Origin: a virus
IMG/VR virus record: IMGVR_UViG_3300014208_000004
Location: 30,260 to 94,259 of that record
DNA length: 64,000 nt
Strand: one strand, 5' to 3'
Positions 4,799 to 64,000 of this stretch are shown in pieces; the first letter of the stretch is position 1; every line of letters begins with the position of its first letter. A program made the translations under genes and the position numbers. The notes under the pieces were generated by a model that was not told the origin of the DNA, did not search any database, and worked only from the letters and a program-made list of their open reading frames with translations.

Positions 4799-4805
4799 GA
4801 GAAAT

Positions 4806-10651: not shown

Positions 10652-10684
10652 AACAATAGAAATACAATTAAAAAGGAAAATATA

Positions 10685-10969: not shown

Positions 10970-10986
10970 TCGGATTGCAAAATACA

Positions 10987-11730
10987 ATGACAGAACAAAC
11001 AGAAAAAATACCAGCCCGTCACAGAAGCCTTGACCAAAATCAAAAAATTCAATTCCGTAAAATGGTAGAGGCTGGGAAGCCTGAAACAACCATTGCAAAA
11101 TACTTTCAAATAACAGTAAGGAACGTTCAGAAGCGAATTAAGGCTATGGGATTGACCCCAAAGGTGAACGAGGAGATAAAGAAAGATATTGTCTCAAAGG
11201 TAAAAGAACTGAAGGCAGCCGAGGCATTTTCAAAAGCAAGCAAGATAACTCAAGATAATTATGACCTAGTACAAAACTTATTTAATAATCTTGCTACTCT
11301 TAATGGATTAATAGAATTAAATAAAAACAGAATTATCCTTGCAGAGAAAATGCGAGGAAAGAATAAAGATGATAGAAAACATCAGGAATTTTTACTCAAA
11401 ACAATATCTGAAATTAATAAGACCGCAGAAACCTTAGTTGACCTTAGAAAGCAATTGTTGAGTGATGAAGAAATAAGGATATTCAAAGATGCAGTCATGT
11501 TATGGATAGAGAATAAAAATCCCGAATTCAAAAAAGAGTTAATCAATGCAATCAACAGTATTCGATTTAGCAGACAACTTAACGGAATCAATAGCCGCAA
11601 CTATTCCACAGGACAACCAGAGCTCTCAGCCCACCCAGCCAATCCTACTTCTAGACAAGGAATCACAGTTTTGGAAGAAGAAGGAGTTTTGGAAGGACGG
11701 GAACCCAGTGGACATTATAGAATTTTGTGA
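10987..11730 (+). CDS. probable terminase small subunit
   Basis: N-terminal HTH (ETTIAKYFQITVRNVQKRI), helical body, overlaps the TerL start. Confidence 0.6.
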   Translation: MTEQTEKIPARHRSLDQNQKIQFRKMVEAGKPETTIAKYFQITVRNVQKRIKAMGLTPKVNEEIKKDIVSKVKELKAAEAFSKASKITQDNYDLVQNLFNNLATLNGLIELNKNRIILAEKMRGKNKDDRKHQEFLLKTISEINKTAETLVDLRKQLLSDEEIRIFKDAVMLWIENKNPEFKKELINAINSIRFSRQLNGINSRNYSTGQPELSAHPANPTSRQGITVLEEEGVLEGREPSGHYRIL

Positions 11731-24688: not shown

Positions 24689-25111
24689 TCGGTAAATTAA
24701 GGCCATTAACAGTCCAGAGACAGGAGATAGCAGAACTTGCCAAGGCACGGGATGAATTTGATGAACACTTCCCACAGACACCGGCACAAGAAAAGTTTTG
24801 CAACAGCGTTGATGAATTAATAGAGAAGTTGAAAGATTTGACGGCGTTTGAAAAAATAACTTACAATGATACAGATTGGTTAAATTCACTCATTGAACAC
24901 CAACAAATAAAATTGTATGAGTTACAAAATAATTAATACCGAAGGCAAAATATTTGTTCAGCCACCAGAACTAGTAGGTATATATCCAGAAAATTATCCA
25001 GTGCAAGTTGGAGTATGGATAGATGAAGAAAAAGAAGAAGTAGAATTCAACTACATTTACACACCAGCGGGAATGATTTGCAACGGATATACAATTAAAG
25101 AAAAACAGTGA
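24685..25111 (+). CDS. two small hypothetical proteins (24685-24936, 24917-25111)
   Basis: Overlapping operonic ORFs. Confidence 0.5.
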
Positions 25112-25686
25112 TTATCACAGCAGAGCACATCCAGGCAAACGTAAAATATTTAGGGCAGACAACTTTCAGTAAGGAGATATTGAAAGATAGTCTAGAACTT
25201 GCCCAGAAACGGATAGAAGCCAGCAAGCAATACATGCAAGACCACGAGCGAACAGACCGAGGATGGAACAACGAACACATAGCACGGATAGGAACGCTTG
25301 CAGAAATGATTGCTATAAAATATCTAACCGACAATAAAATCCCGCATCACAACTTTGCAGCAACCACGGAAGGAATAAACACCAATCCAGATATCATTGT
25401 AGGAGAACACAACTACGATGTTAAAGGGATAGATGTTGTTATCAAAGAATTCCGGGTAAACTTCAATGCACATTGGAGAAAAGAAAAGCGAGTAACAGAC
25501 TATTGGTTCATAAAAATAACCGGGACAGCCCACGCCGATCATTATCTTTGCAATAAAAACTTCATAACTCAATGGCAGATCAATGATAAAAGTTACTCAA
25601 AATTTTATTTCTTGCCTGAGAGCGATATTATTTCAGCACAACTTCCAATCGTTTCCATTCCACAACTAGCAATGCCATTTGAATAA
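25108..25686 (+). CDS. PD-(D/E)XK nuclease-like protein
   Basis: GTLAEMIAIKYL...PDII....YDVKG. Confidence 0.65.
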   Translation: MIITAEHIQANVKYLGQTTFSKEILKDSLELAQKRIEASKQYMQDHERTDRGWNNEHIARIGTLAEMIAIKYLTDNKIPHHNFAATTEGINTNPDIIVGEHNYDVKGIDVVIKEFRVNFNAHWRKEKRVTDYWFIKITGTAHADHYLCNKNFITQWQINDKSYSKFYFLPESDIISAQLPIVSIPQLAMPFE

Positions 25687-26038: not shown

Positions 26039-27175
26039 ATGAATAAACCCAAAATACTCCAATGGTATAATTGCTACGATGATTCCAATAAAAAATGGAT
26101 TACATCGGAGAGTATGACCCACCCAGCGAAAATGTCAGTAGGACTCTGTAAACGAATCTATAAATTCTTAGAAGAAATTCAGGCAATAAAAAAAGGAGAC
26201 TTGATTATCGATCCATTTGGAGGGATTGCAATGACTGGACTCATTGGATCTCATTCGGGATATAAAGTTATCACGGTAGAATTAGAGCCAAAATTCGTAA
26301 AACTTGGTAATGAAAATATTGACAAACATATTATTAATTTATCTCGAATGGTTTTACCATTCCCAGAACACATCCAAGGAGACAGCCGCAATCTTGTAGA
26401 GATAATAAAACGAAAATGTAGTAGTATAATATCCAGCCCACCTTATGCAGACACAGCAATACAAAAATCTGCAAAAGGAGTAAACCTAGAAAAACAATAT
26501 AAAAGTTATCAGGCATCGGGAGGAGGACAAACTTTTGAACAGTTCAAAACAACACAATTAAAGCATTCTCTAGGATATGGATATTCCGAAGGACAAATAG
26601 GAGCACTTAAATCAGGGAACGCCGATGGAATTATTTCTTCACCACCATACGAGGGCATTAGTACTGGACAGGGAGGGCTTAATACAAAACCATCGAAGAA
26701 CGGGAAAGGACAGACGGGAAGAAATCCAAAACTTGCATCACAAAACACCGATCAAAAATATGGTATCAGCCCTGGACAAATATCCAGATTAAAAGGAGGA
26801 GCAATAAACTCTATCATTGAAAAGAAAGAGGAGAAAAAAGAAACATATTGGGAAGCAATGTATAAAGTATATTCCCAGTGTTATGAAATTCTAAAGGATG
26901 ATGGATCAATTGCTATAGTAGTAAAAGATTTTGTCAGGAAGGGGAAAATTATTCCATTGGGGGATGACACCGTAAAACTTTTAGAACATATTGGATTCAA
27001 AACCGAATATCGAATTCACGCAATGGTAATACAAGACCTTGGATCAACAGATATGTTTACAGGAAACCACGGAAGAAAGTCCCGGAAAAGTTTTTTCCGA
27101 AGACTACAGGAACAAAAAGGAAGCCCGGAAATTAACTGGGAAGAAGTTATCATTGCACGAAAACAAAGCCGATGA
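26039..27175 (+). CDS. N4/N6 DNA methyltransferase with duplicated SPPY catalytic module
   Basis: HPAKM, IDPFGG, VELE, GDSR, IISSPPY x2. Confidence 0.85.
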   Translation: MNKPKILQWYNCYDDSNKKWITSESMTHPAKMSVGLCKRIYKFLEEIQAIKKGDLIIDPFGGIAMTGLIGSHSGYKVITVELEPKFVKLGNENIDKHIINLSRMVLPFPEHIQGDSRNLVEIIKRKCSSIISSPPYADTAIQKSAKGVNLEKQYKSYQASGGGQTFEQFKTTQLKHSLGYGYSEGQIGALKSGNADGIISSPPYEGISTGQGGLNTKPSKNGKGQTGRNPKLASQNTDQKYGISPGQISRLKGGAINSIIEKKEEKKETYWEAMYKVYSQCYEILKDDGSIAIVVKDFVRKGKIIPLGDDTVKLLEHIGFKTEYRIHAMVIQDLGSTDMFTGNHGRKSRKSFFRRLQEQKGSPEINWEEVIIARKQSR

Positions 27176-28656
27176 AATTAAACCACGTATACACTGGACA
27201 CAATCTTGAGATATTAAAGTCTTATCCAGACAATAGTATTGACTCAGTAGTAACAGACAGTCCCTATGGACTCAGTAAAGAACCCAACCCAACAGCATTA
27301 ATCCAAGCATGGATTGACCACGGATATTTAGAGCAAACTGGAAAAGGATTTATGAACAAGGCATGGGATGCATTCGTACCACAGCCAATATTTTGGAAAG
27401 AAGTATTCCGAGTATTGAAACCGGGAGGATATTGCCTATCATTTTTTGGAACCCGTACATACGACTGGGGAGTATTGGCAATGAGACTTGCAGGATTTGA
27501 AGTAAGAGATTCAATCCTTTGGATATATGGAAGCGGATTCCCAAAAAGCTTAGACATATCAAAAGCTATTGATGATAAATTAGGATGGGAAAGAAAAATT
27601 AAAGGACAGTATCAGCATCCAGACGGTGGAAAAAGAAAGTATGAAAAACACAACACTTCAAAAGGTGAGATACCTTATGGACATAATAAAGGAAAGAAAA
27701 GAGATATCACAGAACCATCTACACCAGAAGCAATTAAGTGGAACGGATGGGGAACAAATCTAAAGCCAGCAGTTGAGCCAATAGTAGTATGTAGAAAGCC
27801 AATCAGTGAAAGCACCATAGCAGATAATGTTTTGAAATGGGGAACCGGAGGGATTAACATTGATGCAACGAGAATTGGAATTGAAGAAAGAACTTATAAA
27901 GGAAGTGGAAAACAAAAACAAAAATTATCAAATCACGAAAAAGGAGATACCGGAATTGGATACATGGATGGAAATGGAAAAGATATTGAATTTACTGTTA
28001 ATGGACGTTTTCCTTCTAACATAATTCTAAACGAAGAATCAGCAAAAATTCTTGACCAACAATCAGGGATATTAAAATCAGGAAAGATGGATCAAAACAT
28101 CACAGGTAAGACCGGCAACATCTATGGTAAACAATACGACAGGAGAGTAACAGGGATAGGAGATACAGGCTACGCCAGCAGATTTTTTTACATTGCAAAG
28201 CCATCACAGTATGAAAGAAACCTTGGATGTGAGAACATAGAAGCAAAGACCCACGGACACAACCTAACAGACAGATGTAAAAAATGTGGAGGAAGAATAC
28301 ACCAGAACCCAGACCTTCCATCGGCATGTAAATGTGAAGAACCAGAAAGGGAGCATTTATCAGCAAAAGGAAATTCCCACCCAACGGTAAAACCAGTCAG
28401 ATTAATGCAACACCTTGTAAAACTTGTCACTCCCAAGGGAGGAACAATCCTTGACCCATTCCTTGGAAGCGGAACAACAGCCATTGCAGCAAAGATTGAA
28501 GGATTCAATTTCATCGGGATAGAGCAAGATGAACATTCAGTTTTGATTGCCAACGCCCGGATAAAGAATTGGAAGAAATATATTTTCCTTGACAGTAAAG
28601 ACAGACCCGATCCAGTACCAGAAAATCAAACAGACCTATTCACGGAGACAGAATAA
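27172..28656 (+). CDS. beta-class N4/N6 DNA methyltransferase
   Basis: VVTDSPY (DPPY variant), RVLKPGG, YGSGFPK, HPTVKP, LDPFLGSGTT. Confidence 0.9.
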   Translation: MKLNHVYTGHNLEILKSYPDNSIDSVVTDSPYGLSKEPNPTALIQAWIDHGYLEQTGKGFMNKAWDAFVPQPIFWKEVFRVLKPGGYCLSFFGTRTYDWGVLAMRLAGFEVRDSILWIYGSGFPKSLDISKAIDDKLGWERKIKGQYQHPDGGKRKYEKHNTSKGEIPYGHNKGKKRDITEPSTPEAIKWNGWGTNLKPAVEPIVVCRKPISESTIADNVLKWGTGGINIDATRIGIEERTYKGSGKQKQKLSNHEKGDTGIGYMDGNGKDIEFTVNGRFPSNIILNEESAKILDQQSGILKSGKMDQNITGKTGNIYGKQYDRRVTGIGDTGYASRFFYIAKPSQYERNLGCENIEAKTHGHNLTDRCKKCGGRIHQNPDLPSACKCEEPEREHLSAKGNSHPTVKPVRLMQHLVKLVTPKGGTILDPFLGSGTTAIAAKIEGFNFIGIEQDEHSVLIANARIKNWKKYIFLDSKDRPDPVPENQTDLFTETE

Positions 28657-47500: not shown

Positions 47501-50500
47501 GTCACGCCATCACTAGTAGAAAATCAGAAACTTATTGCTGAAGGAAAACTCCCAGAGAACGCCGACCTACAAAATATTTTTCACAACGTTATCAAAACGT
47601 ATGATTCAATTGACAGCAACACCAAGTCATTGATGAATATTAAAAATGGTCAAAGTGATTTTCTCAATGATGATGAGAACACCGCCGATGCAAACTCCCT
47701 ACTTCATAAAATGAAGCAAGAACATTTGTTCAGCACCACGGGGAAGGAAGAAAGCACATTCAGAGACCCGTTAAAGGTTATCGGAATGATTGCCTACCAA
47801 CAGGCAATGAAGCCACGGGATAACGAAGTAGCACGACAACAAGCATACACACAATACGCACTCAAAACAAAACGATTTGCCGAGGCAATCAAAACCCTAG
47901 ATACAAACCAATCGGATATATTTGGGAGCCAGTTAAACCCAGAGGAGCAAAAGAAAGAGAACAATAAAAAACTTATCCAGATTGCAGAACGAGTATTCCT
48001 TGAAAACAAACCCTACCAATCGGGGACGGAAGAACTATCAGCCGATGAACAAGAAGCAAGCAAAGAGCAATTTGCAAAATTCGATGTATACGGCAAGATG
48101 AAGAAGATCGCTGATAAGTACGGATTCAAACTAGTAGGAGAAGAAGAACCAGAGACGATCCTAAAGTCCATGGTAAACTATTTTCTCAATTATCGCTACA
48201 ACCGGGAAGTGAAAGAAATTCAATCCTTCATTGCGAAAGGGAAGCAACTTGGTCTATTCCCAGCAGTGCCAAAAGCACCAGCAACTCCCAAGGTTCCTTC
48301 AGCGACAAAACCAACCACAGGATTGAACTGGAATAAATCCCAAGGGCAGGAAAAACCAGGGCACAAATATTTACGGAGAGAAAAAGGCAAGAGCGGGAAA
48401 TGGGAATATATTTACGAGGAGCCGACAGGCAGACAATATGCCACGGATGAGAAGGGCACGGAACTTCCAAAGCATCGGAACTGGGAGCAAGGCACGGAAG
48501 TGATCCACAACGGGGAAAAAGTTTCCATCCATGAAATGAGCGATAACATTGTAGCACTCAAGAAAAAGAATGGAGACATCTATACCGCCAATGTGAAAGA
48601 CGTTGATACCTTCCATGGCCGACAGAAGAATTTACGCAAACAGATGACAGGATTGAACGTTTCCAAGCCAACACCAAAATGGGACGAACTCATACTGAAA
48701 TTGAATTCCGATCTTGAACAGGGAAGCAAGTCAGGACAATTTGAATTTGCAGACAACAAAGCGGAGTTAGAACGGAAAATAAAATATGCGGAAGATGAGA
48801 GAAATAAAATTAGACAAAAAGTGTCCAGAGAAGAATCAACGGAGAAGCCCACACCAGTAACCGAAACACCAGCATTTGATAATTCAAAAGATATTACTCT
48901 TTCTCATTTAGCAAACGATCTTAATGAAAAATATAAAATCGCTAAAGACATAGAATTTGAGATGTCTTTTTTTGATTTGCAAGATATAGAAGATGTAAAA
49001 AAAGGTTTTCAGAAAACATCGGAAGTGCTAAAAATTCCAATAAAAAAAGTTGAAGAACTATATTATTCAAGAAAAGAAACACATCAAAAATTAAAGGATA
49101 TAATTGCAAAAGATTTGAATAAAAACTACGGGACTAAACTTAAAAAGACAGATAGTGGTAATTATTATTACAAGTCCTCATTTCTACCACGCAGTGACAA
49201 TAAAATATTTTATAAACTTCTTGATCTACAGCAGAAACTTGCAAATGAAAAATCAAAAAAGTTTCTTAAAAATGAAAACATAAAAGTACAACTCAAAAAT
49301 CTTAAATCTATAGGAACTTCTTCAAAGTCTTCAAACTATTACCAATTTCCATCAGGTAAAACAATAAGAATAAGCGATCATTCCCCTGATGGCTATTGGA
49401 TTACCCAGCCAGGACACTCACATGATTATTATGTTGAAGTAAAATGGAACAGTGATTTGAATAAAGTTAAAGATGAATTATTTGATATATTAAAAACAGA
49501 AAACTTATTTGCTCTGAAGGAAAAAGATATTACAAAATCTTTCTTCCAACGCCTATTCCCAATTCTCAAATCCCAACTCGGAATGTTTGGAGTAAAATCA
49601 ACAAAGGGACTTCCATCAAAACAGAAGAAACAATTTAATCCCGATGTAAAATTTAACGAAGTTCAAGAAGGACAAACAAAGAACTTCAACGCGAACGACA
49701 AGCGAGTATTGAAGCGCGGAGCGTTTGGGAAAATGAGATGGTTCAACGCCGATGCAACGGAAGCACATCAACAAGGACTATTTGACAAGACCAAAACAGT
49801 TGACCACGTAAAGCATCAACAACACGTAGAGGAAGTTTCCCAAAAAATAGAAGACACCCATATAGATTCTCATAGTGGACAAAGCGACTATCAAATGACA
49901 GTTAAGCAAAAAGGTAAGGTTATTGCTAAACTTGAATATTCCGAATTTGAGAAAACTCCACATATTAATATGATTGAAGTATCAAAGGATCATCAGCGAA
50001 AAGGACTTGCTAAAAAACTCATTTACAACCTTCAAAAAAAATATCCCAACAAAACGATTCAATGGGGAATGATGACGGATGAGGGAAGCGCATTGAGAAA
50101 TTCTCTAAAGAAAACTTTTATTCAAAATCCAGAGTATAAAAAGTTAGCGGATGAATTAGAATTGTTAAGAAAAAAACAAAGCGAGATGCAAATACAATTT
50201 GATGACTTTACAGAGAACAGCAAAAATTGGAATAAGGAAGATCGAGAGAAAAAACGTCAAGAATTGCCAGATGATTCTTTTAATGAAATAACGGATAAGA
50301 TTTATGATATTGAAAAACAAATAGAGGATTTATCTGAAGGAGAAGAAATAATTGATACAGAAGAACCAAAACCCGATTTCCCAATGCCAGAACCGAAGGA
50401 GATAGTTGCAAAACCAGTCACAGCAGTCAAACTGAAAAACGGAGAAGTAGTAACAGATGATAAAGCAAAGATTCACGCTCAGATGGAAAATGTAAACTGG

Positions 50501-52213
50501 GATGAAGTTGATACAACTGGATTTGTTATCGGAGGAGAATATAAAGAGAATGGAAAATCCGAACTTGGAGAGCAAGCACGAGCCAAGAAAGAACGTGATG
50601 AAGCGAGAGAAAAGAAAATATCCAAACCAAAAGAATTAACCCTATACCGAGGAGGCAAGAACGGTAATTGGTATACACCCGATAAATCGGCAGCCAAGGA
50701 ATATTCAACATTGGATCAGGATGGAAAACTTGAAAAGAAAAACTTCACTTTCAATAAACTTGCAGAAAAGGAAGATATACTTTCAACAGCCGAGGAATTA
50801 GGATTGACCGATGCAAAAGAACAAGCATTGTATTGGTTAGTAAGTCCAGAAACCTATCATGGAGCCGATAAAATAATATCAGCATTAAAGGAAAAGGGAT
50901 TTGATGCAGTTCACCTACCTATAGGGGAAGATTTTTCACCAGAAGGAAAAGCAATTGAATCTTACATGTTGCTTAAAGATGCAGACCAAGAAAAATCCAA
51001 CGGCATCACAGAGACCGAAGCATTTAAGAAATGGTTCCAAGGTTCCAAGGTAGTAGATGAGAATGGGAAACCATTAAGAGTATTTCATGGAACCACAAAT
51101 AATTTTTCTGAACTTGGATACGATAATCTAAAAGATATTGATGCATTTTGGTTTACCGAAGACTTGAATTATGTGAATAATTTTGCAGGAGAAAAAGAAG
51201 GGTCAAACGTAATGCCAGTTTATCTAAAAATAGAAAATCCTGGAACCCAAGAAGATTTCAATGAGATTAGTAATGAGTATGATGAAAAAGTAAAAAATAT
51301 TATAGATACCGATGATGAAATATCATTCTCGAAAATGGCAAAAGAAAAAGGATTTGACGGATTTATTATAGGACATACATCGGAAAAAGATAAGGTATTT
51401 GTTGCGCTAGATTCAGAACAAATAAAATCAGCGACAGGAAACGCAGGGACATTCGATCCTACAAATCCCGACATTACAAAGTCAATTAATCAGGTTACAG
51501 AATTCATTAAAAACTTATTCCAAGCACGAGAGGAAACAAACACCAATCCAAGCGAAGCACAAAAAGAAGCCGGCAACTACAAAAAGGGTACGGTAACACT
51601 CCACGGATTAGAGATAGCAATCGAAAATCCAAAAGGATCATTCCGAAGCGGGAAAGACCACAACGGCAAAGAGTGGAAAGTGAAGATGACTGCAGACTAT
51701 GGTTACTTCAAAGAGAAGAATGCAGACAGCGTACAGATCAAAGGAAAAGACAAAGATGAAATTGATGTATTCATAGGAAGCGATCCTGAGAGCGAAAAAG
51801 TATTTATCGTTAATCAAATAAACCCAGCGACAAAAGTATTTGACGAGCACAAAGTCATCATTGCAACACCGGACGAAAAGAGAGCACTAAAACTTTATAA
51901 AGGAAGTTACTCCGATGATGCAATAAAACGAATTGGAAGCATTGTAGAAATGGATATGGAAGAATTCAAAGAGTGGCTATACAACGGCGATAAAACAACG
52001 GCAGTAAAACAGAAGAAAGTAAATGCTATGGAAACTCAAGAACATCCAGAAAGTGGTATCATTAAAAAACTTCAATCACAAATTGAAACACTAATGAATA
52101 AAGTCAGCAATCAAGACAAACCCAAAAAAGGACAAACAATTAAAACCGTAACATTCACACGGGATGATAAAGGCAGAATAACAGGAGCCACAATCAAAGA
52201 ACAAAATAAATAG
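44552..52213 (+). CDS. giant polyvalent protein (DdrB-type ParB-like, GNAT, two ART-like and inorganic-pyrophosphatase-like domains)
   Basis: QSH...LQARNR...GAPV...QGNGRT; IEVSKDHQRKGLA; LYRG...WYT; AFKKWFQGSKVVDENGKPLRVFHGT...QIKSATGNAGTFD; QKEAGNYKKG...IENPKGS.RSG...DYGY...IDVF. Confidence 0.85.
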   Translation: MNHIFFAEPISNEKIIKGTILHTTQQPNTLPVLASEHEHTTIENRTYLLVDKQPLEFLGAVPKKNSGLSRIFKSMNTIVEITALNEVIETSTNWIRKGIQCNKGIIIKVGKDIAVVRDPIGSIIPYKISSLQPVEILDTDAILKAHSFAIEIQKAIATGQNFPGLNQQATEGTTKQFGVNDTRRLGRGKDGKLRWMDADEYAKEVSSRQGKQQPAQTTRQFKVGETIHFKGEEVKVIDHSDKVVAYKKADGSTGTFEANSYKEDSEDKNAEGKAKAMTLGNFNAKKKPAEAAKEFGENKPSAISHEAPPNAWYKEHQRIIDTETATPEYEEFVKNAEANGYHKNGNFEYSKEVKYKDTDGNISINKTLELSKFYNTETKKTDFSIDGVQTKVTYDGKEYDLADLDGKDLSGMTIRNEDGIEQKINKYDLDKYQGNIKIDENGKATIIQQGKDIGEFIPEANITQEDLLKEGTLKIIGDEIWKRTKTGDGVSFNDTLLGRVDKGIAFYKHGNEVGIVSDGYTTNIANRNNVRRPSTQAVKDTEIQKRIRKETAKLKEEGKSRQDVDSVKARIEIENSPSLEKKGKSIDTADYEDVINTFIPDKETIAQVANSYGTEEWKANIKALAEQMKVTDVQRANEIDAFNKMSKNGILKDAPQERNASEYLDSAKELLENKYREFKREQLNEKISSRKQGDTKTKFERGELAEIPVNAKAVSSKTMRIRDSEENTYQVTYAVVPMNDVIQSHESTGEEHADHPKELQARNRKTEGSKKQMGEIASQIDERVTEDSADANRGAPVGYSKDGKVYIAQGNGRTAGIKGSTGDARDTYFGLMVRKAAELGMRTKDIQPTDMLVRVLTPKHTYQDAITLGADQDTPAMPYTEVERTRAFQNKNPQGLLEAGQNINMKSIGNKPINETNVASWISDNPEIYKKILAQTGKQRAHIETSPKLQSEAINIAMMAQLKPDFIDDISARDTRTHDLVKTVTPSLVENQKLIAEGKLPENADLQNIFHNVIKTYDSIDSNTKSLMNIKNGQSDFLNDDENTADANSLLHKMKQEHLFSTTGKEESTFRDPLKVIGMIAYQQAMKPRDNEVARQQAYTQYALKTKRFAEAIKTLDTNQSDIFGSQLNPEEQKKENNKKLIQIAERVFLENKPYQSGTEELSADEQEASKEQFAKFDVYGKMKKIADKYGFKLVGEEEPETILKSMVNYFLNYRYNREVKEIQSFIAKGKQLGLFPAVPKAPATPKVPSATKPTTGLNWNKSQGQEKPGHKYLRREKGKSGKWEYIYEEPTGRQYATDEKGTELPKHRNWEQGTEVIHNGEKVSIHEMSDNIVALKKKNGDIYTANVKDVDTFHGRQKNLRKQMTGLNVSKPTPKWDELILKLNSDLEQGSKSGQFEFADNKAELERKIKYAEDERNKIRQKVSREESTEKPTPVTETPAFDNSKDITLSHLANDLNEKYKIAKDIEFEMSFFDLQDIEDVKKGFQKTSEVLKIPIKKVEELYYSRKETHQKLKDIIAKDLNKNYGTKLKKTDSGNYYYKSSFLPRSDNKIFYKLLDLQQKLANEKSKKFLKNENIKVQLKNLKSIGTSSKSSNYYQFPSGKTIRISDHSPDGYWITQPGHSHDYYVEVKWNSDLNKVKDELFDILKTENLFALKEKDITKSFFQRLFPILKSQLGMFGVKSTKGLPSKQKKQFNPDVKFNEVQEGQTKNFNANDKRVLKRGAFGKMRWFNADATEAHQQGLFDKTKTVDHVKHQQHVEEVSQKIEDTHIDSHSGQSDYQMTVKQKGKVIAKLEYSEFEKTPHINMIEVSKDHQRKGLAKKLIYNLQKKYPNKTIQWGMMTDEGSALRNSLKKTFIQNPEYKKLADELELLRKKQSEMQIQFDDFTENSKNWNKEDREKKRQELPDDSFNEITDKIYDIEKQIEDLSEGEEIIDTEEPKPDFPMPEPKEIVAKPVTAVKLKNGEVVTDDKAKIHAQMENVNWDEVDTTGFVIGGEYKENGKSELGEQARAKKERDEAREKKISKPKELTLYRGGKNGNWYTPDKSAAKEYSTLDQDGKLEKKNFTFNKLAEKEDILSTAEELGLTDAKEQALYWLVSPETYHGADKIISALKEKGFDAVHLPIGEDFSPEGKAIESYMLLKDADQEKSNGITETEAFKKWFQGSKVVDENGKPLRVFHGTTNNFSELGYDNLKDIDAFWFTEDLNYVNNFAGEKEGSNVMPVYLKIENPGTQEDFNEISNEYDEKVKNIIDTDDEISFSKMAKEKGFDGFIIGHTSEKDKVFVALDSEQIKSATGNAGTFDPTNPDITKSINQVTEFIKNLFQAREETNTNPSEAQKEAGNYKKGTVTLHGLEIAIENPKGSFRSGKDHNGKEWKVKMTADYGYFKEKNADSVQIKGKDKDEIDVFIGSDPESEKVFIVNQINPATKVFDEHKVIIATPDEKRALKLYKGSYSDDAIKRIGSIVEMDMEEFKEWLYNGDKTTAVKQKKVNAMETQEHPESGIIKKLQSQIETLMNKVSNQDKPKKGQTIKTVTFTRDDKGRITGATIKEQNK

Positions 52214-52227
52214 AAGGAACAACGGTT

Positions 52228-52632
52228 ATGCTAAATTCAAATATTTCTAACATCGCAGCAAACACACAACTTAATGCACTTGCAGTATTAGCCAACAATG
52301 GATATTTGAGAATATACAACGGAGTGCAGCCAGTAAGTGCCGATACTCCAATTTCATCTCAAACATTACTATCAGAACTACGATTAAGTCCAACTGCATT
52401 TGGATCGGCCATCGGAGGAGTATTAACAGCAAACACAATTGTAGATGATACATCGGCAAACAACACGGGGACGGCAACTTGGTTCAGAATATTAAAATCA
52501 GATGGATCAACAGTTTTATTTGACGGTTCAGTAGGATTATCAAATGCAAATTTAGTTATGACTGATGTTGATATCCGAGTAGGATCACGAGTGTCAATAA
52601 ATTCATTCACGTATACACTTCCAAAACACTGA
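52228..52632 (+). CDS. virion structural protein (beta-rich)
   Basis: LRIYNGVQP.SAD, TGTATWFR, DGSVG pattern recurrent in phage structural loci. Confidence 0.65.
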   Translation: MLNSNISNIAANTQLNALAVLANNGYLRIYNGVQPVSADTPISSQTLLSELRLSPTAFGSAIGGVLTANTIVDDTSANNTGTATWFRILKSDGSTVLFDGSVGLSNANLVMTDVDIRVGSRVSINSFTYTLPKH

Positions 52633-52641
52633 GCGTAACAA

Positions 52642-52944
52642 ATGATTAAGCATAAATTCCATAGTGAAATACCAGACTCAACAGACACGACAATAGTAAG
52701 GCCATCCAACTGGAATGATGAACACGATATAACCAACGGGATTGCAACCTTGGATGTAAACGGTACGGCAGTAGTAACAAATACGGAAGTAACCATTGCA
52801 GAAAAAATATTTTTAACACGACAATCGGGAAGAAGCAACATGGCCATTTATGTATCCAGCGTTAATCCCGGAATAGACTTCACAATCACATCTCTAGGTA
52901 CAGCCGATGATGCAGGATTAAATATCGGATGGATAATTGTATAG
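52642..52944 (+). CDS. putative virion protein
   Basis: IKHKF.S..PD.....VRPSNWNDEH motif. Confidence 0.55.
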   Translation: MIKHKFHSEIPDSTDTTIVRPSNWNDEHDITNGIATLDVNGTAVVTNTEVTIAEKIFLTRQSGRSNMAIYVSSVNPGIDFTITSLGTADDAGLNIGWIIV

Positions 52945-52969
52945 CACTAATTTAATCAGGAGCAACAAA

Positions 52970-54850
52970 ATGAAAAAAATCTTATTCCTTACACTGCTAT
53001 TTACTTCTTTATCATTCTCACAATGGACAAGAGGTACAGGGGCACAGGCAAACGAAGTCTATCTATTCAGAGGGACGGACTCATTAGTCATCGGAAATTA
53101 TATCTGGAATGGAGCAAGACTTGACTCCACACACATGAATATATTTACAGCCTATAAAAATCAAGACAACACATTTACGGGTATAAATACTCTCGGAGGT
53201 TTAACAAAGTTTGGTTCGCATAGTTACGGATTTAGTGCAACGATACAATTATGGGACGAACATTCACTTTCATATAAAAACATAGGACATGATTTAATAA
53301 CAGGAAAATTAAATTTTAATTCAGATACAATTTCACTTGCAACTTGGCAGGGGACAAAAATTGATACAGCCTATTTGAGTTCATCAATTGCTGTTAAAGC
53401 TGATTCCGCAATCGTAGCCCCTGGTCTTGGAATAAACGTAAGTTATGCCTTGCATACCGTAACACCAAACGCAGATACAACAAAGATACCATTCAAAAAT
53501 GCTATAGGTATCTGGGATGCTTCACAGTATCATACAGCGAGAGATTATTTTAGCAGTTTTAATGTAGATACAATTAGGGGGAGGACTCAAGCTGTATTTA
53601 TTAACGATACTCTAAAATTGTTAAACGATAGATTTGTTTACTTCGGAGGAGTAAAATCTTTATTTACAAATTCAAGCAATACACAGTTCGGATATTCGGC
53701 TGGTGGATTAACTTCGGGTGGGACAGCAAATGCTTTATTCGGCTCCTATGCTGGTTATCACATTACGTCTGCACACGATAATGTTTTAATTGGAGCTAAC
53801 GCAGGTTATATGCTTGATACATCCAATACAAATGTGTTTATAGGTAAGTCCGCAGGGTATTATACTATAAATGCAGAAAATACGATGGTTGGTCATAATT
53901 CTGGTTTTAACAATGTTGACGGACACGGTAATGTATTTATTGGAAAATATTCTGGATATGGTGACTCAACTGGCTATGCAAACGTTGAAATTGGAAAAGA
54001 ATCTGGAATGAACAACAAGCAGGGAATTAGTAACATTTATCTTGGCTATCGCTCTGGGTATTGGAGAACAGATTCAAATAAATTATGGATTGGAAACAGT
54101 AATACTGCTATGCCAATACTGTTTGGCGACATTTCAAATGGAAGATTATCAATTAACGATACAACGAATACGAGTTACAATCTATACGTAAATGGAACTC
54201 AATATACGAGTGATTCTTCTAATTTCGGTGGTAATATAATTGTAAATGCAGGAAACACTGCTACAATAACTTTAGATGGAACGGTTGGCACGGAAAGAGT
54301 TGGGACGCAGTCTATTTGGACGCAGGGTGGTGGACTATATTCTTCGTCTCGCGGTAACATACGATTTGGGATTGATAACGATGGTAATTCAACGGCGGCA
54401 AGTTTTGATATTTACTCAAATGGACTTGGAAGTGCTGGAACTGGCGGAAATTTACTTTTCTCTGCAAATGAAAATACTGGCGCGACAATTAGATTAAAAG
54501 GGACAACAAATACTGCTGTGGTGATGCAGATTGAACGGTCTGCATCTACGACACCTGTAATTAAATTTGATTCAACGGGGCTTGGGACACTTGTTAATTT
54601 GACCACAACAGGTCTTTCAACATTCGGAACAAACGGGGGAACAACAACAATACCTTCTGGTGGTATTGCAAAGGTATATGTGTCAGGATTGACAACTTCG
54701 GGTAAGGTAGCTATCTCTGTGAACAAAGGTTCATTTGTTACGCTTGCGGTTGCAGATACAATACCGAGTTGGAATATCCCTTCAACCGATACACTGTATA
54801 TTCGCTATAAATACAATGAAGTAGTTTCTTATGCGATAATGAAAAAATAA
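52970..54850 (+). CDS. fibre/adhesin-like protein with signal peptide and 14-aa NxxxG beta-roll repeats
   Basis: MKKILFLTLLFTSLSFS-Q; repeats NALFGSYAG, NVLIGANAG, NVFIGKSAG, NTMVGHNSG, NIYLGYRSG; AGGAG SD. Confidence 0.7.
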   Translation: MKKILFLTLLFTSLSFSQWTRGTGAQANEVYLFRGTDSLVIGNYIWNGARLDSTHMNIFTAYKNQDNTFTGINTLGGLTKFGSHSYGFSATIQLWDEHSLSYKNIGHDLITGKLNFNSDTISLATWQGTKIDTAYLSSSIAVKADSAIVAPGLGINVSYALHTVTPNADTTKIPFKNAIGIWDASQYHTARDYFSSFNVDTIRGRTQAVFINDTLKLLNDRFVYFGGVKSLFTNSSNTQFGYSAGGLTSGGTANALFGSYAGYHITSAHDNVLIGANAGYMLDTSNTNVFIGKSAGYYTINAENTMVGHNSGFNNVDGHGNVFIGKYSGYGDSTGYANVEIGKESGMNNKQGISNIYLGYRSGYWRTDSNKLWIGNSNTAMPILFGDISNGRLSINDTTNTSYNLYVNGTQYTSDSSNFGGNIIVNAGNTATITLDGTVGTERVGTQSIWTQGGGLYSSSRGNIRFGIDNDGNSTAASFDIYSNGLGSAGTGGNLLFSANENTGATIRLKGTTNTAVVMQIERSASTTPVIKFDSTGLGTLVNLTTTGLSTFGTNGGTTTIPSGGIAKVYVSGLTTSGKVAISVNKGSFVTLAVADTIPSWNIPSTDTLYIRYKYNEVVSYAIMKK

Positions 54851-56018
54851 TGAAAAAACTATTCTACACCATTCTATTGGCTTCAACGCTATGCTCTTGT
54901 GCTTCACAAGTGCAGATTGAAAAGCCATTGAATGATAAACAAAGTATGCAACAGCATCAATGACTGGATTTCTAAAATATTCAGACTTCTCAATATTCAG
55001 TTCTAAGATAGGTGGAAGCGGAACAACAAATACTTTTCCAATGTTTACGGGAACTTCAACACTCGGTAATTCAGGACTCTCCCAAACCTCTGGTGGTGAT
55101 GAGATAGTAGCTAATGACTCATTGAAAGTAGGTGCAAGTGGAACGGGAGTGTTAAGGGCAGGGGCAACAACATTGTCGGGTGCTCTTAGTCTTGGTTCAA
55201 ATACAATCACAACAACAGGCGCAGGTTCTCTTGGTTCTTTAACGCTTACATCAACCGTGCAAATCAATAGTAGCACACCAACATTAAATCTTAATTCGAC
55301 AACAGAATTTAATCAAACAGCATTGAATTTTTATTCGAATAGTTTTTTACAGTGGCAAACCTTAAAGAGAACAACAACAAAACAATGGGGAATTTATAAT
55401 AACCGTCTATCAACGTATGCAGTTTTGATTGATACGGCAGATAATAAAATGACACTAACAGGTGGATTAGTTGGAACAACAGGAGTTTTTGCTTCAAGAG
55501 GCGTAGTTGGATTATTAGTAGGTAACGTTGATTTAGGCGGAACAGTATCAAATAGATCGGTGATAAATTTATCGTCTTCAAATGAGTTATCAATATTCAA
55601 GATAGGACAATCAACTACTGCTTTCGGTCAGCATATTTGGCGATACAATGCAACAGAAGCATCGGCATACCTTGATATTCAATCGAATAAGGGTTTAGCA
55701 TTGAATGTTAATAGTTCTGGCGCAGTTCCATCGTCGGCAACTGACTTAGCAATTGGAGCGACAACAATTACAACGACAGCAAGTTTATCTTCTGGCTTAA
55801 TTACTTCGCACAATAATATTGTAAGTGATTCATCCTTTACTATCAATGAACGCACGACAACACCAACATATCCGACATCCAATACACAAATGCGCTCGTA
55901 TATGAAAAGTGATAAAATAATTTGGGTTATCAATTCAGCCGGAACGCCAAGATTTTATTATTTCGATGCAACATTAACAGCAGATCAACAAATTAAATAT
56001 TCAGCAACAGCACCATAA
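54850..56018 (+). CDS. second fibre-like protein whose lipoprotein-type leader (54850-54963) is out of frame with the body (about 54939-56018)
   Basis: MKKLFYTILLASTLCSC lipobox coupled by TAATG; Gly/Ser/Thr-rich body frame open from 54939. Confidence 0.55.
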
Positions 56019-56021
56019 TTT

Positions 56022-56387
56022 ATGCAAACAGCCTTTCAACAAAATGCTTTTCAGGATAATGCGTTTCAGATTCAGGTATTCCGGGGATCGATTGAAATTA
56101 TTTCAGCCCCAGAAACATCGGATGCAATAGGAGAAGTATTTAATCAGACAGACCAAGGGGATATAGGTGCATATCATAGAGAATGGAAAGAACTTCAAAA
56201 AGAAATTAAAGGAAGAATTGAAGTAACTGCAGAACGTTCACAAATAAAGGCAGCGGGGAAAATAACTCCAGTAATGCGAGGGAGTATAAATGCAACAGGA
56301 TCAATAGGGAAAGTTGTTGCTGAAGGATATTGCGATGAAAGCGATGAGGACATTATGCAACTTGTTCTACAATTAGCGGAGATGTAG
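56022..56387 (+). CDS. phage protein with AFQxNAFQxNAFQ N-terminus
   Basis: MQTAFQQNAFQDNAFQ; acidic C-terminus DEDIMQLVL. Confidence 0.6.
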   Translation: MQTAFQQNAFQDNAFQIQVFRGSIEIISAPETSDAIGEVFNQTDQGDIGAYHREWKELQKEIKGRIEVTAERSQIKAAGKITPVMRGSINATGSIGKVVAEGYCDESDEDIMQLVLQLAEM

Positions 56388-56519
56388 ATGACTAAGAATG
56401 ACCGAGCAAAACGACAGATACAAAAATTTGTAGCAACCAAGAAACGTCAGGCATTCGGCAACAAGCGACAAATCAAAGGACTGATTAAACTCAGTAAACT
56501 CCAACGAGGTATGAAATGA
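56388..56519 (+). CDS. small basic protein (43 aa)
   Basis: Hand-translated MTKNDRAKRQIQK...; coupled on both sides. Confidence 0.45.
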   Translation: MTKNDRAKRQIQKFVATKKRQAFGNKRQIKGLIKLSKLQRGMK

Positions 56520-59500
56520 ATTTCTTCCAAAGACTATTCCGCAAATCACAACTTGACATGTTCACAGCGTCAACACCGAAGAAAACAACAGGGCTAAACT
56601 TTGACAAACCAAAGACCGATAAAGAAGCGCGAATAGGAGACTTGAAAAGTGAGAACGGAAAGTATTACATATTTCTTGAAACTACAATTGGGAAACCACG
56701 ATGGCATACACACGCCGAGTTACACCAGATGGCAAAAGAAGGGAAACCGATACCGGAGATAGCGAAGAAGAAAATTCCATCACTGAAAAAGGTTGAAGAA
56801 GATAAATCAAAAGAACCGATTGCAAAACACGGAGATAAAATTCGTTTTACCGATGATGAACATAAAGCGGAATGGATTGTTCAAAATTCACAAATTAACA
56901 AAGAAGGTAAAAGGGAATACGAAATAAAATACGATAACGGTGAGAAAGGAAAAGATCATACCATCTTTAAGACTTGGGTAGAACAAGATGACATTACATC
57001 TATCAATGGTAAAAACTTAAATCAAAAAGAAAAAGAAGCATACGAATTATCAGTTGATGAATATATTAATAAACTTAACAGTTCAAGAATTCCTAATGGA
57101 TTAACACCAATCAGTAAAAACAAAAATGATAAGTCTTATCAACTTGCAAAGAACTCACATAAGATCAGAACACAGCAAGCTATATCTGAGGGCAAAGAAG
57201 TTTCACCAAAAGCAATTAATGACCACGAGGATATAAAAAAAATTGAAGATGCTAAATCTTCATTATTTAGTCAGAGCAATAAAGAAAAAGCCGATCCATT
57301 ATCCGAAGCCGTTAATAAAAAAGTCAACGATAAAAAAAATCAAGAAGAAAGAAACCATAGGGTATTTGTCGTTCATAAGAGCAACAAGCCAACCACGGAA
57401 CATGAGAACTTGACCGAAGAAGAAGCAAAACAAATTTACGAGAAATATAAAACCGATGCAGATTCAGAGATCACAACATGGAATAAAAGCATTTATAACG
57501 ACCATGGGAAAGTAACTTCAATTCCTACGGTTAAAATGCATGTCAATAAAACAAAAGAAGAACCAGCCGAACCCCAGGAGAAGAAAGAATATAAATTTAC
57601 AACAACCAATGAATTCCTTAAATCAAAAGGATTAACGGAAGCCACAGCAAAAAAACTATCAATTGATAGAAAAGTAGAACTTTCAAAAGAATATGAACAG
57701 TTACAAAACAATGAAAGCAAATCAGCTCAGGAAGAATTCAAACAAAAATCACTTGAAGAAAAAGAGCAACGCCGATTAGAACAGGAAAAAAACAACAAGC
57801 AATTTGAAGATCAATTACAGATGGATGAAAAAGACCAAAGCATTGAAGACCGTATTGATGCAAAAATAAATGATAAACGTCCATTGACCCCAGAAGAACA
57901 AAAGTTTTTTGATGAAAACCAATACGCACCAACTGGATTCAAATATGACTCTCAGGGGAACCTTATCAAACAGGAAACGACACCAGCCGAACCCAAACAC
58001 AAAGAATTAGAAGATAATTCTTTTGATTCGTTATCAGAAGATGCAAAACAAAGAGCATATAAAGACTATAAAAAAAATTCTACCAACGCTGATACATTTG
58101 AAGGATTCTCTCAAGCAATGAAGGGAGTAGAATTTAATAAAGATGGTACCGTCATAGAACCCGAACACAAAGTAGGTGACACGAAACAAGAAGACGGCCA
58201 CACATACCGACTCAATGAAAACCATCGATGGGAAAGAGTGGATGAAGACAAAAAAGAAGAACATCCAACATTTGAAGTAGGGGAGAAAGCAACATTTACC
58301 AGCAAGGATGGAAAAGAGTATGAAGTAAATTTCCGTGGATACAACGGGGATAAAGCCGTCATTGTAGGAAAGCCAAAAGACAAAATAGATCAAATGGAAG
58401 TTGATATATCTCAGTTAAAAAAAATAGCAAAAGAGGAATCGAAACCAGAACCAACCGAACCAAAGCAAGAAGAAAATCAATTCGATGCAAAAGCATTGAA
58501 AGAAAAACTATTATCATTAAAACCAAAATTGAAGTTCCTAAATGCAGATGAACGTAAAGCAATGGAGAAACTTGCTGAAAGAACATCCAGCGCAAAGAAC
58601 TCTCAAGAGAAGTTGGAAGTAGCAAAAGATATTGATGCATTCCTTACCGCAATTGATAAGAACATCGAAGACAAAGCCCAACGGGATAGAATGGTCAATC
58701 CAACCCTACACGCAAAGAAGGAAGATATTCATACAATAGTTGAACAGAAATTGGACGAGAAACAAGAAAATAAATCCTTCAAAGATGCAGGTAAAAGAGT
58801 AGGGGGATCAAAAAAGGAAATGGCAGCAATCAGGGCTATTACTTCAACAGACCTTGACAACATGGACAATGCAACAGCTTTCAAAGTTGTAACCAAGGAC
58901 AGGATACTCCCAGACATTGACGTAGAGCAACGGCGATTAGACGGAGAAGATGCAGGGCTAGTATTCCTAAAGAAAAAACTCCACGAGGCAGTAAGTGCAA
59001 AGCCAGCCAATAATCCTGAAGCACGAAAAGCATACGTAGAACTTATTCCAAAACTATTTGAGAAAATTGATGCAGCCAAGTCCATAGATGAAATAGATGA
59101 TATTGGACGAAACACTTTTGAACGATTATATTCATACCGAGGAGGAAACAAAGTATTTTTAATCGGCAGTAAAGATACCGTAGTAGAAGATTATCTGGGG
59201 AAAACATTCCTTAATCTGATTGCTAAGAATACAGATTCAGCAGCAGAAAATTGGAGCAAAGCAATTTTATACGATGCATTCCCAGAAAAACTATCCAGAG
59301 AAAAATACGAAAAATATATAGAGGCTAGAACCAATAACATTAAAGAAACAAAAGAGCGACTTGCAACACGTACCCCGGAAGAATGGGAACGAGAAACGAA
59401 AGATGATTACATGGTAAAATATACCTTCAACGGTAATCAGTTGAATAAAATGAAAAAAGAAGAACCGGATAAATACGCAAAACTTATCCAGGATCATAAG

Positions 59501-61092: not shown

Positions 61093-61179
61093 GAATTATT
61101 AAAAACTAACCTAATTTCTATAATTCCAACATTGTATTTTTGTTCTGTAAGTTTTACCACAAACACAATCTTTGAGACA

Positions 61180-62703
61180 ATGCAAAATACCCCGTTCAAA
61201 ATTTTTGGAAACGTAGAAATAATCAAAGCCGTATCTTCAAATCCATTGGATGGATTTAGGATCAGAGGAGTAGTTTTACGTAAAGCAAAAGATGAACAAG
61301 GTGAGACTCCAATGATGGACAAGATGGACTGGAGTTATTTTGATAAAACTCAAAACTTACTTTACGAACACAAACCCGCAACAATCACAATTGACAAATC
61401 GAAGAACACAACTTCAATCACTGCAAACGTCCCAGAGCCGGAAGATTATATCGGCAAAGTATTAAGCCGTACACGCAGTGCCGATGGAGCAAATGAAATC
61501 ATTGAAGCCCAACTGTACCCGAGCAATAAGAAAGCTCAGGACATTGTTAAGATGATGAAAGATATTGAACTCATTAACAAACAATATCCGAAGCAACAGA
61601 AGACAATTGGATTTTCAATTGAGGCAGTCCCGATCCAAAAAACTGTAAATGGAAAATATGCAGACAAGAACGGGAATTACGCCGGCAAAGTTATCAGCAT
61701 TGTAGTTTCACCAACACCGCAAGATGCAGGGACATACGCAGAAATAATGGAACACGAAAATAATAAAATTGCAAAATCATTGAGTGCAGGGTATGATGTT
61801 AATCCAGCGACAATGACAGACGGAGAAGCATTAAAGAAAGAAAGTTTAATAAGTAATAAAAAATCACAAACCAAAGGAGTAAGAACCATGCGTAAATACA
61901 AATCTATCCAAGATGCACATACCGAGTGCATTACAAAAGGCATGAAAGGTAAAGAAGCACAAGACGAAGCGACACGCTTGTGGAATGCACAATTGGCAGA
62001 AGAAGCCAATACGGTTACCGGATCAATTGAAAAGGGAATCGATGCAGCACTTTCTTTCATCAAAAAATCTTTTGAGCCGATCAATGCATTACTTGCCCGG
62101 ACATCGGAAGTTGAAACAAGTCTTATCCGAGCAGACATTGAAATCAAAAAATCTTTTGCGAATTACGAAGCATCAACAGAAGATCAGCCATTTGACGGCG
62201 GAGCAGCCGTTGTAGCAATTCAAAAAAGTGTCTACGGACTGCAGACCGAACAAAACATCAGCAACCAATCAATTGCAAAAGCGATGATTGCACAATCAGA
62301 AGCAATGCAAGAACTTTTTGGAATTGTAAAAAGTATGGCAACACAACTTTCAACAATCCAGGGTACCAGCGATGATACCATTAACCGTGTAACCGCAATC
62401 ATGCAGGGAGTTAAAAAATCTGTAGCAGGATCGACCACCGACCCAGCAGTATTGCGAACTCTTTCAGTTGATTCAAAACAAACTGAACTGAATGAAACAG
62501 ACCGGATTATCAAAGGCATTCCAGTAAAACGGATTGAACGATTCCTTGTAGACCGGGGGGAACAACTCGGACGAGAACAAGGTGCTGCATATTTCACTGC
62601 ACAGCAAAACTTTAAGGTGCAAGGATTGTCAGCAATCAACAAAGGGATGAGAAAAGAAATTGCTGATGCACTTGGAAGTTTTTCGTACGCAGTAGAAAAC
62701 TAG
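61180..62703 (+). CDS. prohead protease fused to scaffolding protein
   Basis: RIRGV....KDEQGE..MDWSYF...YEH, IGFSIE, VSPTP; helical C-half with many xxKS motifs; in-frame internal ATG 61888 with AAGGAG SD. Confidence 0.85.
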   Translation: MQNTPFKIFGNVEIIKAVSSNPLDGFRIRGVVLRKAKDEQGETPMMDKMDWSYFDKTQNLLYEHKPATITIDKSKNTTSITANVPEPEDYIGKVLSRTRSADGANEIIEAQLYPSNKKAQDIVKMMKDIELINKQYPKQQKTIGFSIEAVPIQKTVNGKYADKNGNYAGKVISIVVSPTPQDAGTYAEIMEHENNKIAKSLSAGYDVNPATMTDGEALKKESLISNKKSQTKGVRTMRKYKSIQDAHTECITKGMKGKEAQDEATRLWNAQLAEEANTVTGSIEKGIDAALSFIKKSFEPINALLARTSEVETSLIRADIEIKKSFANYEASTEDQPFDGGAAVVAIQKSVYGLQTEQNISNQSIAKAMIAQSEAMQELFGIVKSMATQLSTIQGTSDDTINRVTAIMQGVKKSVAGSTTDPAVLRTLSVDSKQTELNETDRIIKGIPVKRIERFLVDRGEQLGREQGAAYFTAQQNFKVQGLSAINKGMRKEIADALGSFSYAVEN

Positions 62704-62750: not shown

Positions 62751-64000
62751 ATGAACGAATTACTTTTCCCAGACGAGATTATCTCTCCATCGGGATCACT
62801 GGAAGCATCGGCAATGCCACAAAGTATGTTGCAAATGTTGACCAGTGCAAATCCGATTGAAGCAATCCGTAAAGCATTATCCATTGGTTACGATGTTGAC
62901 CCGGCAACAATGGCAGACGGAACCGCATTCCGTTTAGAATCACTTGAACCAGACCTTAAAAATTTGGTATTCAATGAACAGTCAACAGCAATGGCAAACG
63001 ACTTGTTATCTGCAAAGAAAACAGCGAACTCCACCGTTGAACAATACACCACGATCAACGATGTTGCTGAAGCATTCACGTATCTTGAGGGAGGCTTACC
63101 GCCACAAGAAGACGATGATTATTCACGCCGTTTTGAACAGATCAAATACATTGGAGCCGTTTGTCAGGTAACCAATGTTATCCAACAGGCAAAGAATATG
63201 GTATCTGCAATTGAACAAGAGAACCGTATGAAACTTCTTGCCATCAAAAAGAAATTGAATGTTCTTTCATACTTTGGAGACAAAACATTAGTTTCCACAG
63301 AATTCAATGGATTCTACAAAGCCGTTGAAACATTCGATTCAGGCTCAATTGTCAGTACAAACATCATTGACATGCACGGTTACCGACCTTCCTTGGAAAA
63401 ATTCAACCAAGGTGTACAGGTCATTCAAAGCGTTTCCGGTTACACGGATAAATTGCGATTGTATATGGGCATCAATGCACGATACGATTACAAGAATGAA
63501 TTGCTGAAAGAAAAACGCTACATGGTCACGGGAGATTCACCTTCCCAAATCCAAGGCGTAGAAGCAAACAAATTGATTTATGATGGAGGAATGGCTCCAA
63601 TACGTCCCGATATGTTCCTTAATCCCCGCAAGTTCCCACGCATGGCAGGGGGAGCATTCGTAGTATCAGGAGACACACCGCCAGCCACGCCGACAGTTAC
63701 CAGCGTAACACCAACCGTTGATGCAAATTCAACATTGGTTCCCGGCACGTATGATTATGCGATTGTAGCAGTAAATAAATACGGACAAAAATCAGTTCCA
63801 TCGGTAGTTGCGGCAACACAAAATGTTGCAGTGAACGCCGGAGAGAAAGTTGTATTTGTGATTGCTGATAGCGGAACAAGCCCAGCAGGAGCAGTTGCAA
63901 CAGCATTTGAAGTGTACCGCCGGGATTCTACATTGACCGCCGATACGGATTATCGTTATTTGTTCACTGCAGCAATCGGAACAGCATCGGATGACGGTGC
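62751..64000 (+). CDS. major capsid protein, SPO1/Twort-like (3' partial; absent from the ORF track because no stop falls in the window)
   Basis: Hand translation open to the end: IRKALSIGY...AFRLESLE..LKNL, STVEQY, EGGLP, IKYIG, YFGD...EFNG, IIDMHG, YDYAIVAVNKYGQ; AGGAG SD. Confidence 0.9.
   Translation, partial: MNELLFPDEIISPSGSLEASAMPQSMLQMLTSANPIEAIRKALSIGYDVDPATMADGTAFRLESLEPDLKNLVFNEQSTAMANDLLSAKKTANSTVEQYTTINDVAEAFTYLEGGLPPQEDDDYSRRFEQIKYIGAVCQVTNVIQQAKNMVSAIEQENRMKLLAIKKKLNVLSYFGDKTLVSTEFNGFYKAVETFDSGSIVSTNIIDMHGYRPSLEKFNQGVQVIQSVSGYTDKLRLYMGINARYDYKNELLKEKRYMVTGDSPSQIQGVEANKLIYDGGMAPIRPDMFLNPRKFPRMAGGAFVVSGDTPPATPTVTSVTPTVDANSTLVPGTYDYAIVAVNKYGQKSVPSVVAATQNVAVNAGEKVVFVIADSGTSPAGAVATAFEVYRRDSTLTADTDYRYLFTAAIGTASDDG

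Follow-up and report, generated by a model that had tools for sequence, protein, structure and literature searches.

Bacterial proteins that work with the beta sliding clamp (DnaN), such as polymerases, MutS/L and Hda, carry a short pentapeptide with fixed Q and F in a flexible or terminal segment, and invading genetic elements use the same host clamp as a landmark of replicating DNA. Thus, Tn7 TnsE, the Tn3-family transposase TnpA (through a QLxxLR motif), IS200/IS605 elements and group II introns bind DnaN (PMC11417375), while the C and Mor proteins of phage Mu, which has no clamp of its own and uses that of the host, possess an N-terminal clamp motif Qx[D/E][L/M]F that two-hybrid assays and mutants have confirmed (PMC12867686). 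The window analyzed here is the 64,000-nucleotide stretch at positions 30,260 to 94,259 of the IMG/VR virus record IMGVR_UViG_3300014208_000004 and reaches to the end of this complete record of an uncultured phage, which measures 94,259 bp and has direct terminal repeats (all coordinates below are those of the window). It encodes two large polyvalent proteins, P0001 and P0002, in which a repeated leader module carries a pentapeptide core with the pattern Q[LM][GDSN][LM]F[GA]. Considering the match to the clamp consensus, the pattern of conservation, the disordered setting, the variety of cargo and of guanine-cytosine (GC) content among the carriers and the weak support from complex prediction, we interpret this core as a putative short linear motif that may dock on the host DnaN, a reading for which we regard the evidence as evenly balanced.

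P0001 (44552-52213, 2553 aa) comprises the domains ddrB-ParB (aa 725-856), GNAT (aa 1755-1835), ART-PolyVal (aa 2169-2301) and InPase (aa 2335-2476), while P0002 (56516-60727, 1403 aa) exhibits the zincin signature HExxH (aa 1160-1164) and the LPD1 domain (aa 1283-1356); the two genes, the features within them and the head genes mentioned below are all on the + strand. The ddrB-ParB, GNAT, ART-PolyVal, InPase and LPD1 matches all exceed the Pfam cut-offs. With several unrelated effector domains per polypeptide, signature domains among them, both proteins fit the polyvalent class, and they are members of the group described by Iyer et al. 2017 (PMC5512222), which features ART-PolyVal, InPase, ddrB-ParB, LPD1 and MPTase domains encoded beside head genes. 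That work makes no mention of the clamp or DnaN, the domains it describes include neither the leader module nor its motif, and we found no published report of a clamp-docking motif in polyvalent proteins in the literature; among the papers searched, the only one to name both polyvalent proteins and the sliding clamp deals with them separately. The leaders resemble the bacterial clamp clients in the pentapeptide pattern, the fixed Q and F and the flexible or terminal setting. In contrast to those clients, however, the motif resides here in virion-associated multi-enzyme proteins, recurs where modules begin and is linked with a small beta-meander ending with arginine and tryptophan (RW), and its binding to the clamp is putative. 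Like Mu, the phage lacks a clamp, but Mu C, a transcription factor of 16.5 kDa, is synthesized after infection and is not a packaged polyvalent protein, and it possesses neither the cleavage sites nor the leader module. The DnaN-binding recombinases of mobile elements differ in the motif variant (helical QLxxLR in TnpA), in protein class and in purpose, which is the choice of target site.

The initial annotation of this region (48230-56563) reported three clamp-type peptides, all of which were found at exactly the given coordinates: QLGLF at 48245-48259 (within IAKGKQLGLF, P0001 aa 1227-1236), QLGMF at 49574-49588 (within ILKSQLGMF, P0001 aa 1671-1679) and QLDMF at 56549-56563 (within FRKSQLDMF, P0002 aa 8-16). 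All three fit the pattern Q-[LMA]-x-[LMI]-F, and they match both QL[SD]LF, correctly cited in that annotation as the bacterial clamp consensus, and the variant Qx[D/E][L/M]F that has been validated in phage (PMC12867686). The six-frame scan of the window for QLx[LMI]F detected these three instances and no others in coding frames; all lie within P0001 and P0002, where 0.054 are expected by shuffling (three were reached in 0/5000 shuffles). Being paralogous modules, the three copies do not count as independent events, and therefore their conservation among relatives is stronger evidence than the shuffling count.

The leader to which the pentapeptides belong shows a constant order of elements: an aromatic-rich short helix (e.g. 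FFQRLF), usually a K-S dipeptide, Q[LM][GDSN][LM]F with G or A as the next residue, a linker of 25-55 disordered residues enriched in P, K, A and Q, and a small beta-meander closing with R-W. Leader 1 (48158-48259, P0001 aa 1203-1236) consists of an ILK/S site (the slash marks the predicted cut), a low-confidence helix, IAK-GK and QLGLF; compared to the orthologues, an 18-aa insertion separates its first K-S from the motif, and the beta-hairpin that follows (48359-48415, G-H-K-Y ... G-K-W) opens a beta-rich domain with predicted local distance difference test (pLDDT) values of 75-85. Leader 2 (49529-49588, P0001 aa 1660-1679) contains ITK/S, the FFQRLF helix, ILK/S and QLGMF, with its hairpin at 49676-49741 (T-K-x-F ... 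G-K-M-R-W). Leader 3 (56516-56563, P0002 aa 1-16) starts with the N-terminal FFQRLF helix, followed by FRK/S and QLDMF, and the conserved beta-meander of P0002 (56633-56707, aa 40-64) ends with P-R-W-H and is modeled with pLDDT 73-81. The AlphaFold2 (AF2) models place the motif in a flexible or terminal segment, as expected of clamp clients: residues 1-40 of P0002 are devoid of secondary structure (pLDDT ~50) and precede the beta-meander and a helix (pLDDT 73-81), while in P0001 the motif closes a low-confidence helix and enters a linker with pLDDT <50, beyond which lies the beta domain (75-85). The Foldseek search with the model of the leader and hairpin against the PDB returned no match at E <= 0.001. 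Two further RW hairpins, at aa 174-195 of P0001 (45071-45136) and aa 554-572 of P0002 (58175-58231), have no upstream QLxLF, and therefore the hairpin is a separate repeated unit.

The third leader is missing from the IMG/VR gene call for P0002 (P0003, 1389 aa), which begins at the M within QLDMF and thereby cuts off the conserved leader (56516-56560). The longer version with the start at 56516 is supported, because a GAGG sequence is located 7 nt upstream and the added residues are conserved in homologues. The gene call of P0136 is likely shortened in a similar manner.

To avoid circularity, relatives of the leader were sought with a motif-free query, a profile of the P0002 beta-meander alone with the pentapeptide excluded, which was run against 1.84 billion representative proteins, the GTDB genomes and IMG/VR. 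A Q..[LM]F sequence was found 25-55 residues upstream of the match in 15 of the 17 informative cases, and the leader is kept in every homologue of the P0002 N-terminus. Among 29 distinct leaders, on which all position counts rest, Q at position 1 and F at position 5 are invariant (29/29 each), position 2 is L or M in 21, position 3 is G, D, N or S in 27, position 4 holds L in 25 leaders and M in the other 4, and F is followed by G or A in 23. Judged from the aligned sequences, this pattern of fixed and tolerant positions is that known for clamp motifs. The flank before Q is less constant: K is found at position -2 in 17/29 and S at position -1 in 16/29 leaders, K-S immediately precedes Q in 16 and is missing in the other 13, and in one subfamily 14 residues intervene between K-S and Q..LF. 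The variable spacing indicates that the core pentapeptide, and not its juxtaposition with K/S, is the selected feature. The initial annotation named a lack of conservation in related phages as a refutation and proposed to check the whole K/S-QLxLF arrangement in homologues; this refuting outcome was not observed, since Q and F are kept in all leaders, while the juxtaposition holds for little more than half of them.

The cargo behind the leader varies (LPD1, SNF2-methylase, zeta toxin, InPase and a 2H family); for instance, P0010, a homologue of the P0002 N-terminus, carries it on SNF2-methylase cargo. The motif is retained in elements of 37% and 60% GC, and this variety of both cargo and composition is in keeping with a universal target in the host. 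The motif is likewise present in P0150, P0157, P0161 and P0165, close relatives of P0001 that were selected through the C-terminal ART/InPase part, and some distant LPD1 proteins (P0031, P0067) possess 2-4 copies with other flanks, e.g. QLHLF, QLNLF and QLDLF. Leaders were also observed in a metagenome-assembled genome (MAG) of Ignavibacteriota, in a chromosomal region of 60% GC at positions 1-12168 of a 1.19-Mb contig, which encodes ddrB-ParB, zeta-toxin and SNF2 polyvalent open reading frames (ORFs) and contains at least 3 leader copies; its long ORF is seemingly split by frameshifts relative to P0010. Megablast with the giant gene and tblastn with the leader against 50,697 GenBank phages gave no match.

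The gene content of the phage is consistent with dependence on a host clamp. No DnaN domain was found in the complete phage, nor in a complete relative, and no polymerase of family A, B or C (PolA, PolB or PolIII-alpha) was detected in the complete phage, which does encode an O/DnaD-like initiator and a helicase. Because it lacks a clamp and a polymerase, we infer that it replicates by the host replisome. No tRNA was found in the window. DnaN is present in 41/41 sampled genomes of the phylum of the Fibrobacteres-Chlorobi-Bacteroidetes (FCB) group to which genome G001 belongs. DnaE of the sampled genomes of this phylum exhibits the sequence g-Q-x-[ST]-L-F-[dg], which is close to the leader variants, and DinB of one genome has QLDLGV. 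The initial annotation had proposed structure prediction with an FCB-group DnaN. For this analysis DnaN of the leader-carrying Ignavibacteriota MAG (with an alignment of 25 clamps) was combined with residues 1-60 of P0002 (with 10 homologues); the MAG itself is excluded as the host by its GC content (60%, compared to 37% in the phage). The three runs scored 0.49, 0.38 and 0.27 (median 0.38), while the best of 3 controls scored 0.00, and the result was graded as weak support. Of 80 solved complexes, 58 attain the mark applied, as do 2 of 110 mismatched pairs, and scores <=0.60 are found for only 7 of those 80 complexes and for both passing mismatches. The agreement of contacts between runs was at least 31% and the pLDDT of the partner at least 34. 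The pass may be owed to likeness to known structures, clamp-peptide complexes having been solved.

Several observations weigh against clamp docking. The complex score is weak and gives no interface. Two leaders have the weak variants QGNLF and QAGLF. The motif is absent from most LPD1 proteins, and 119 ART/InPase proteins (404,792 aa) hold 10 motifs compared to 5.6 +/- 2.2 in shuffled sequences; owing to this lack of enrichment, a role of the motif as a general feature of polyvalent proteins was rejected, and the motif is restricted to this lineage. It is always accompanied by the aromatic helix, the K-S sites and the hairpin, hence it could serve the module itself. Finally, Shine-Dalgarno-like sequences (GGAG/GAGG/AGGA) are found upstream of 45% of the ORFs in the whole genome, compared to a background of 15%, which is unusual for a phage of Bacteroidia; therefore, the guess of an FCB-group host is uncertain and the DnaN modeled is a stand-in.

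The main rival explanation is that the motif is a signal for processing or packaging, i.e. the P' side or an exosite for the prohead protease, a part of a capsid-targeting element together with the aromatic helix, or a cleavage site of the zincin (MPTase), and that its likeness to clamp motifs is coincidental. The genomic context speaks for this reading. The genes of P0001 and P0002 adjoin the head genes, with the prohead protease/scaffold ORF (61132-62703, 523 aa) and the major head protein (62751-63998, extending beyond the window end) directly downstream, and it is probable that the head takes up both proteins and that they enter the cell together with the DNA. The leaders are located at domain boundaries, e.g. 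behind InPase in P0128, the aromatic-rich helix always precedes the motif, and the motif adjoins sites of the type [I/V]xK/S. The corresponding pattern, [ILVFM]xK/[SAG] followed by a hydrophobic residue, occurs 12 times in the scaffold ORF (23 per 1000 aa, compared to 2.2 per 1000 aa in all + strand ORFs), and I-x-K/[S/A]-L-S-x-G-Y-D-V is common to the scaffold ORF and the capsid protein. In the scaffold ORF it reads I-A-K/S-L-S-A-G-Y-D-V, next to eleven further xK/S-type sites, and at the propeptide junction of the capsid protein I-R-K/A-L-S-I-G-Y-D-V (the IRK/ALS site at aa 39-42). A prohead protease cutting after K is therefore plausible, and so are the cleavage sites predicted for the leaders from this resemblance. 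A short N-terminal hydrophobic peptide followed by a site of the prohead-protease type is also shared with other head-packaged proteins, namely the internal proteins of T4 and DarA/DdrB of P1. However, the capsid-targeting and propeptide signals of T4 and P1 are not known to have a clamp-like pentapeptide after the cut, and in the leaders the conserved core is on the retained side of it.

The same sites also speak against a role of the motif in the cleavage. QLxLF stands behind neither the capsid site nor any of the 12 scaffold sites, therefore the protease does not need the motif. K-S can be separated from Q..LF by 14 or 18 residues and is absent in 13/29 leaders, while Q and F stay constant. 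The tenfold enrichment in the scaffold ORF makes the cleavage sites postulated in the initial annotation plausible, but their position directly before the motif is found in only 16 of the 29 leaders; that annotation proposed that maturation exposes a clamp peptide at or near a new N-terminus, but exact N-terminal exposure is not the conserved feature. As regards cleavage by the zincin, these enzymes usually cut ahead of a hydrophobic residue, and F-G-G, F-G-A or F-A-G is frequent right after the motif, but only 10/29 leaders have G-G after F, and most LPD1/MPTase proteins lack such a motif. Autoprocessing of polyvalent proteins by MPTase has been proposed by Iyer et al. 2017 (PMC5512222). A leader of the double-glycine/LxGG type (with hydrophobic residues at -4, -7 and -12) was rejected, as the G-G is found in those 10 leaders only and position -7 would be Q. 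Altogether, and given that a conserved 5-mer is unlikely to match so specific a consensus by chance, we consider a processing or packaging signal possible, but probably not the correct explanation.

According to a second alternative, the motif binds a partner other than the clamp, i.e. the beta-meander of its own module, the machinery of the portal or of ejection, or a different hub protein of the host. Even in diverged variants, Q..LF is always found together with the RW hairpin, which lies 25-55 residues downstream of it, and no relative of the hairpin fold was identified. Yet the linker is variable in length, of low complexity and disordered, which argues for two independent elements, the hairpins of P0001 (aa 174-195) and P0002 (aa 554-572) exist without the motif, and no other known motif class fits, thus we regard such a partner as quite unlikely. 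Chance occurrence of the pentapeptides in long, lysine-rich proteins of low complexity is highly improbable and was dismissed on the shuffling and conservation data: a fourth QLGLF, in a 310-aa ORF outside the window, is apparently fortuitous, but no shuffle reached three copies and Q and F are fixed across the 29 leaders recovered by the motif-free query.

Other clamp-like peptides were noticed in the window. QSDIF, listed in the initial annotation as an internal motif of the clamp type, is indeed present at 47909-47923, but the homologues align here with the non-canonical Q-Q-G-G/E-D-I-F that includes an indel, hence on alignment its status as a clamp motif is doubtful. QQGLF (49769-49783), downstream of the hairpin of leader 2, is a weaker clamp-like candidate. 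The DNA methyltransferase ORF (27172-28656) has a proline- and acid-rich tail with QTDLF (28627-28641), from which four residues remain to the stop; in most of the 1380 phage homologues of the enzyme, the alignment extends no further than approximately residue 170 of the last 200, hence the tail looks like a lineage-specific addition, which may be a clamp-binding tail according to its sequence. The ORF at 25108-25686 (192 aa), located among methyltransferase genes and resembling PD-(D/E)xK nucleases by eye, ends with QLAMPF-E-stop (25663-25680); the hexapeptide QLAMPF, at the very C-terminus, is of the QLxLx[LF] clamp type. Just upstream of P0002, the ORF at 56022-56387 (121 aa) ends with an acidic run and QLVLQL (56358-56375) three residues before the stop, which we take to resemble the hexapeptide clamp motif of Pol IV. 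Among all 111 ORFs, 4 C-terminal clamp-like tails were found compared to 1.5 expected (P = 0.07), which is not significant on its own. In another metagenomic contig, the LPD1 polyvalent protein P0109 has DnaN-like domains at its C-terminal end (aa 1048-1360; PF02767 with E-value 2.5e-9, PF02768 and PF00712 weak), which we assign as a predicted clamp module within a polyvalent protein.

If the docking on the clamp is accepted as the working interpretation, the following course of events can be envisaged. The motif would open a repeated leader with which cargo segments of P0001 and P0002 begin, the prohead protease would cut at [I/V]xK/S, and the resulting fragments (one with an unknown domain, GNAT-ART-InPase and zincin-LPD1) would each have the motif at or close to their start. 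Once injected, a fragment could be tethered by the motif to the host DnaN on DNA, so that the effectors would be sited at replication forks or the polymerase-less phage would be helped to engage the host replisome. Of the two roles suggested in the initial annotation, docking on DnaN or its titration, tethering is favored and seems likelier than bulk titration, because virion-packaged proteins would be few per cell. We speculate further that the repeated leader could be a two-part replisome tether, in which each matured cargo fragment would start with a clamp peptide and a small RW domain, load on the host DnaN and bring ADP-ribosyltransferase, acetyltransferase, pyrophosphatase and protease activities to the fork, that a phage without polymerase and clamp could thereby seize the host replisome in the first moments of infection, and that the clamp-like tails of the methyltransferase and the nuclease-like protein could belong to the same strategy; taken jointly, these propositions are unlikely to hold in full.

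Should the motif instead turn out to act in processing or packaging, it would represent an undescribed signal of this kind in polyvalent proteins. Polyvalent proteins are regarded as the earliest-acting phage molecules in a newly infected cell. If the docking on the clamp is true, these injected virion proteins would be added to the few factors of mobile elements known to make use of the host clamp (Mu C, TnsE, Tn3 TnpA), and their leaders would provide short natural peptides for probing the clamp pocket. A conserved clamp peptide at the front of each cargo segment would then constitute a simple addressing mechanism by which the polyvalent enzymes could find their targets.

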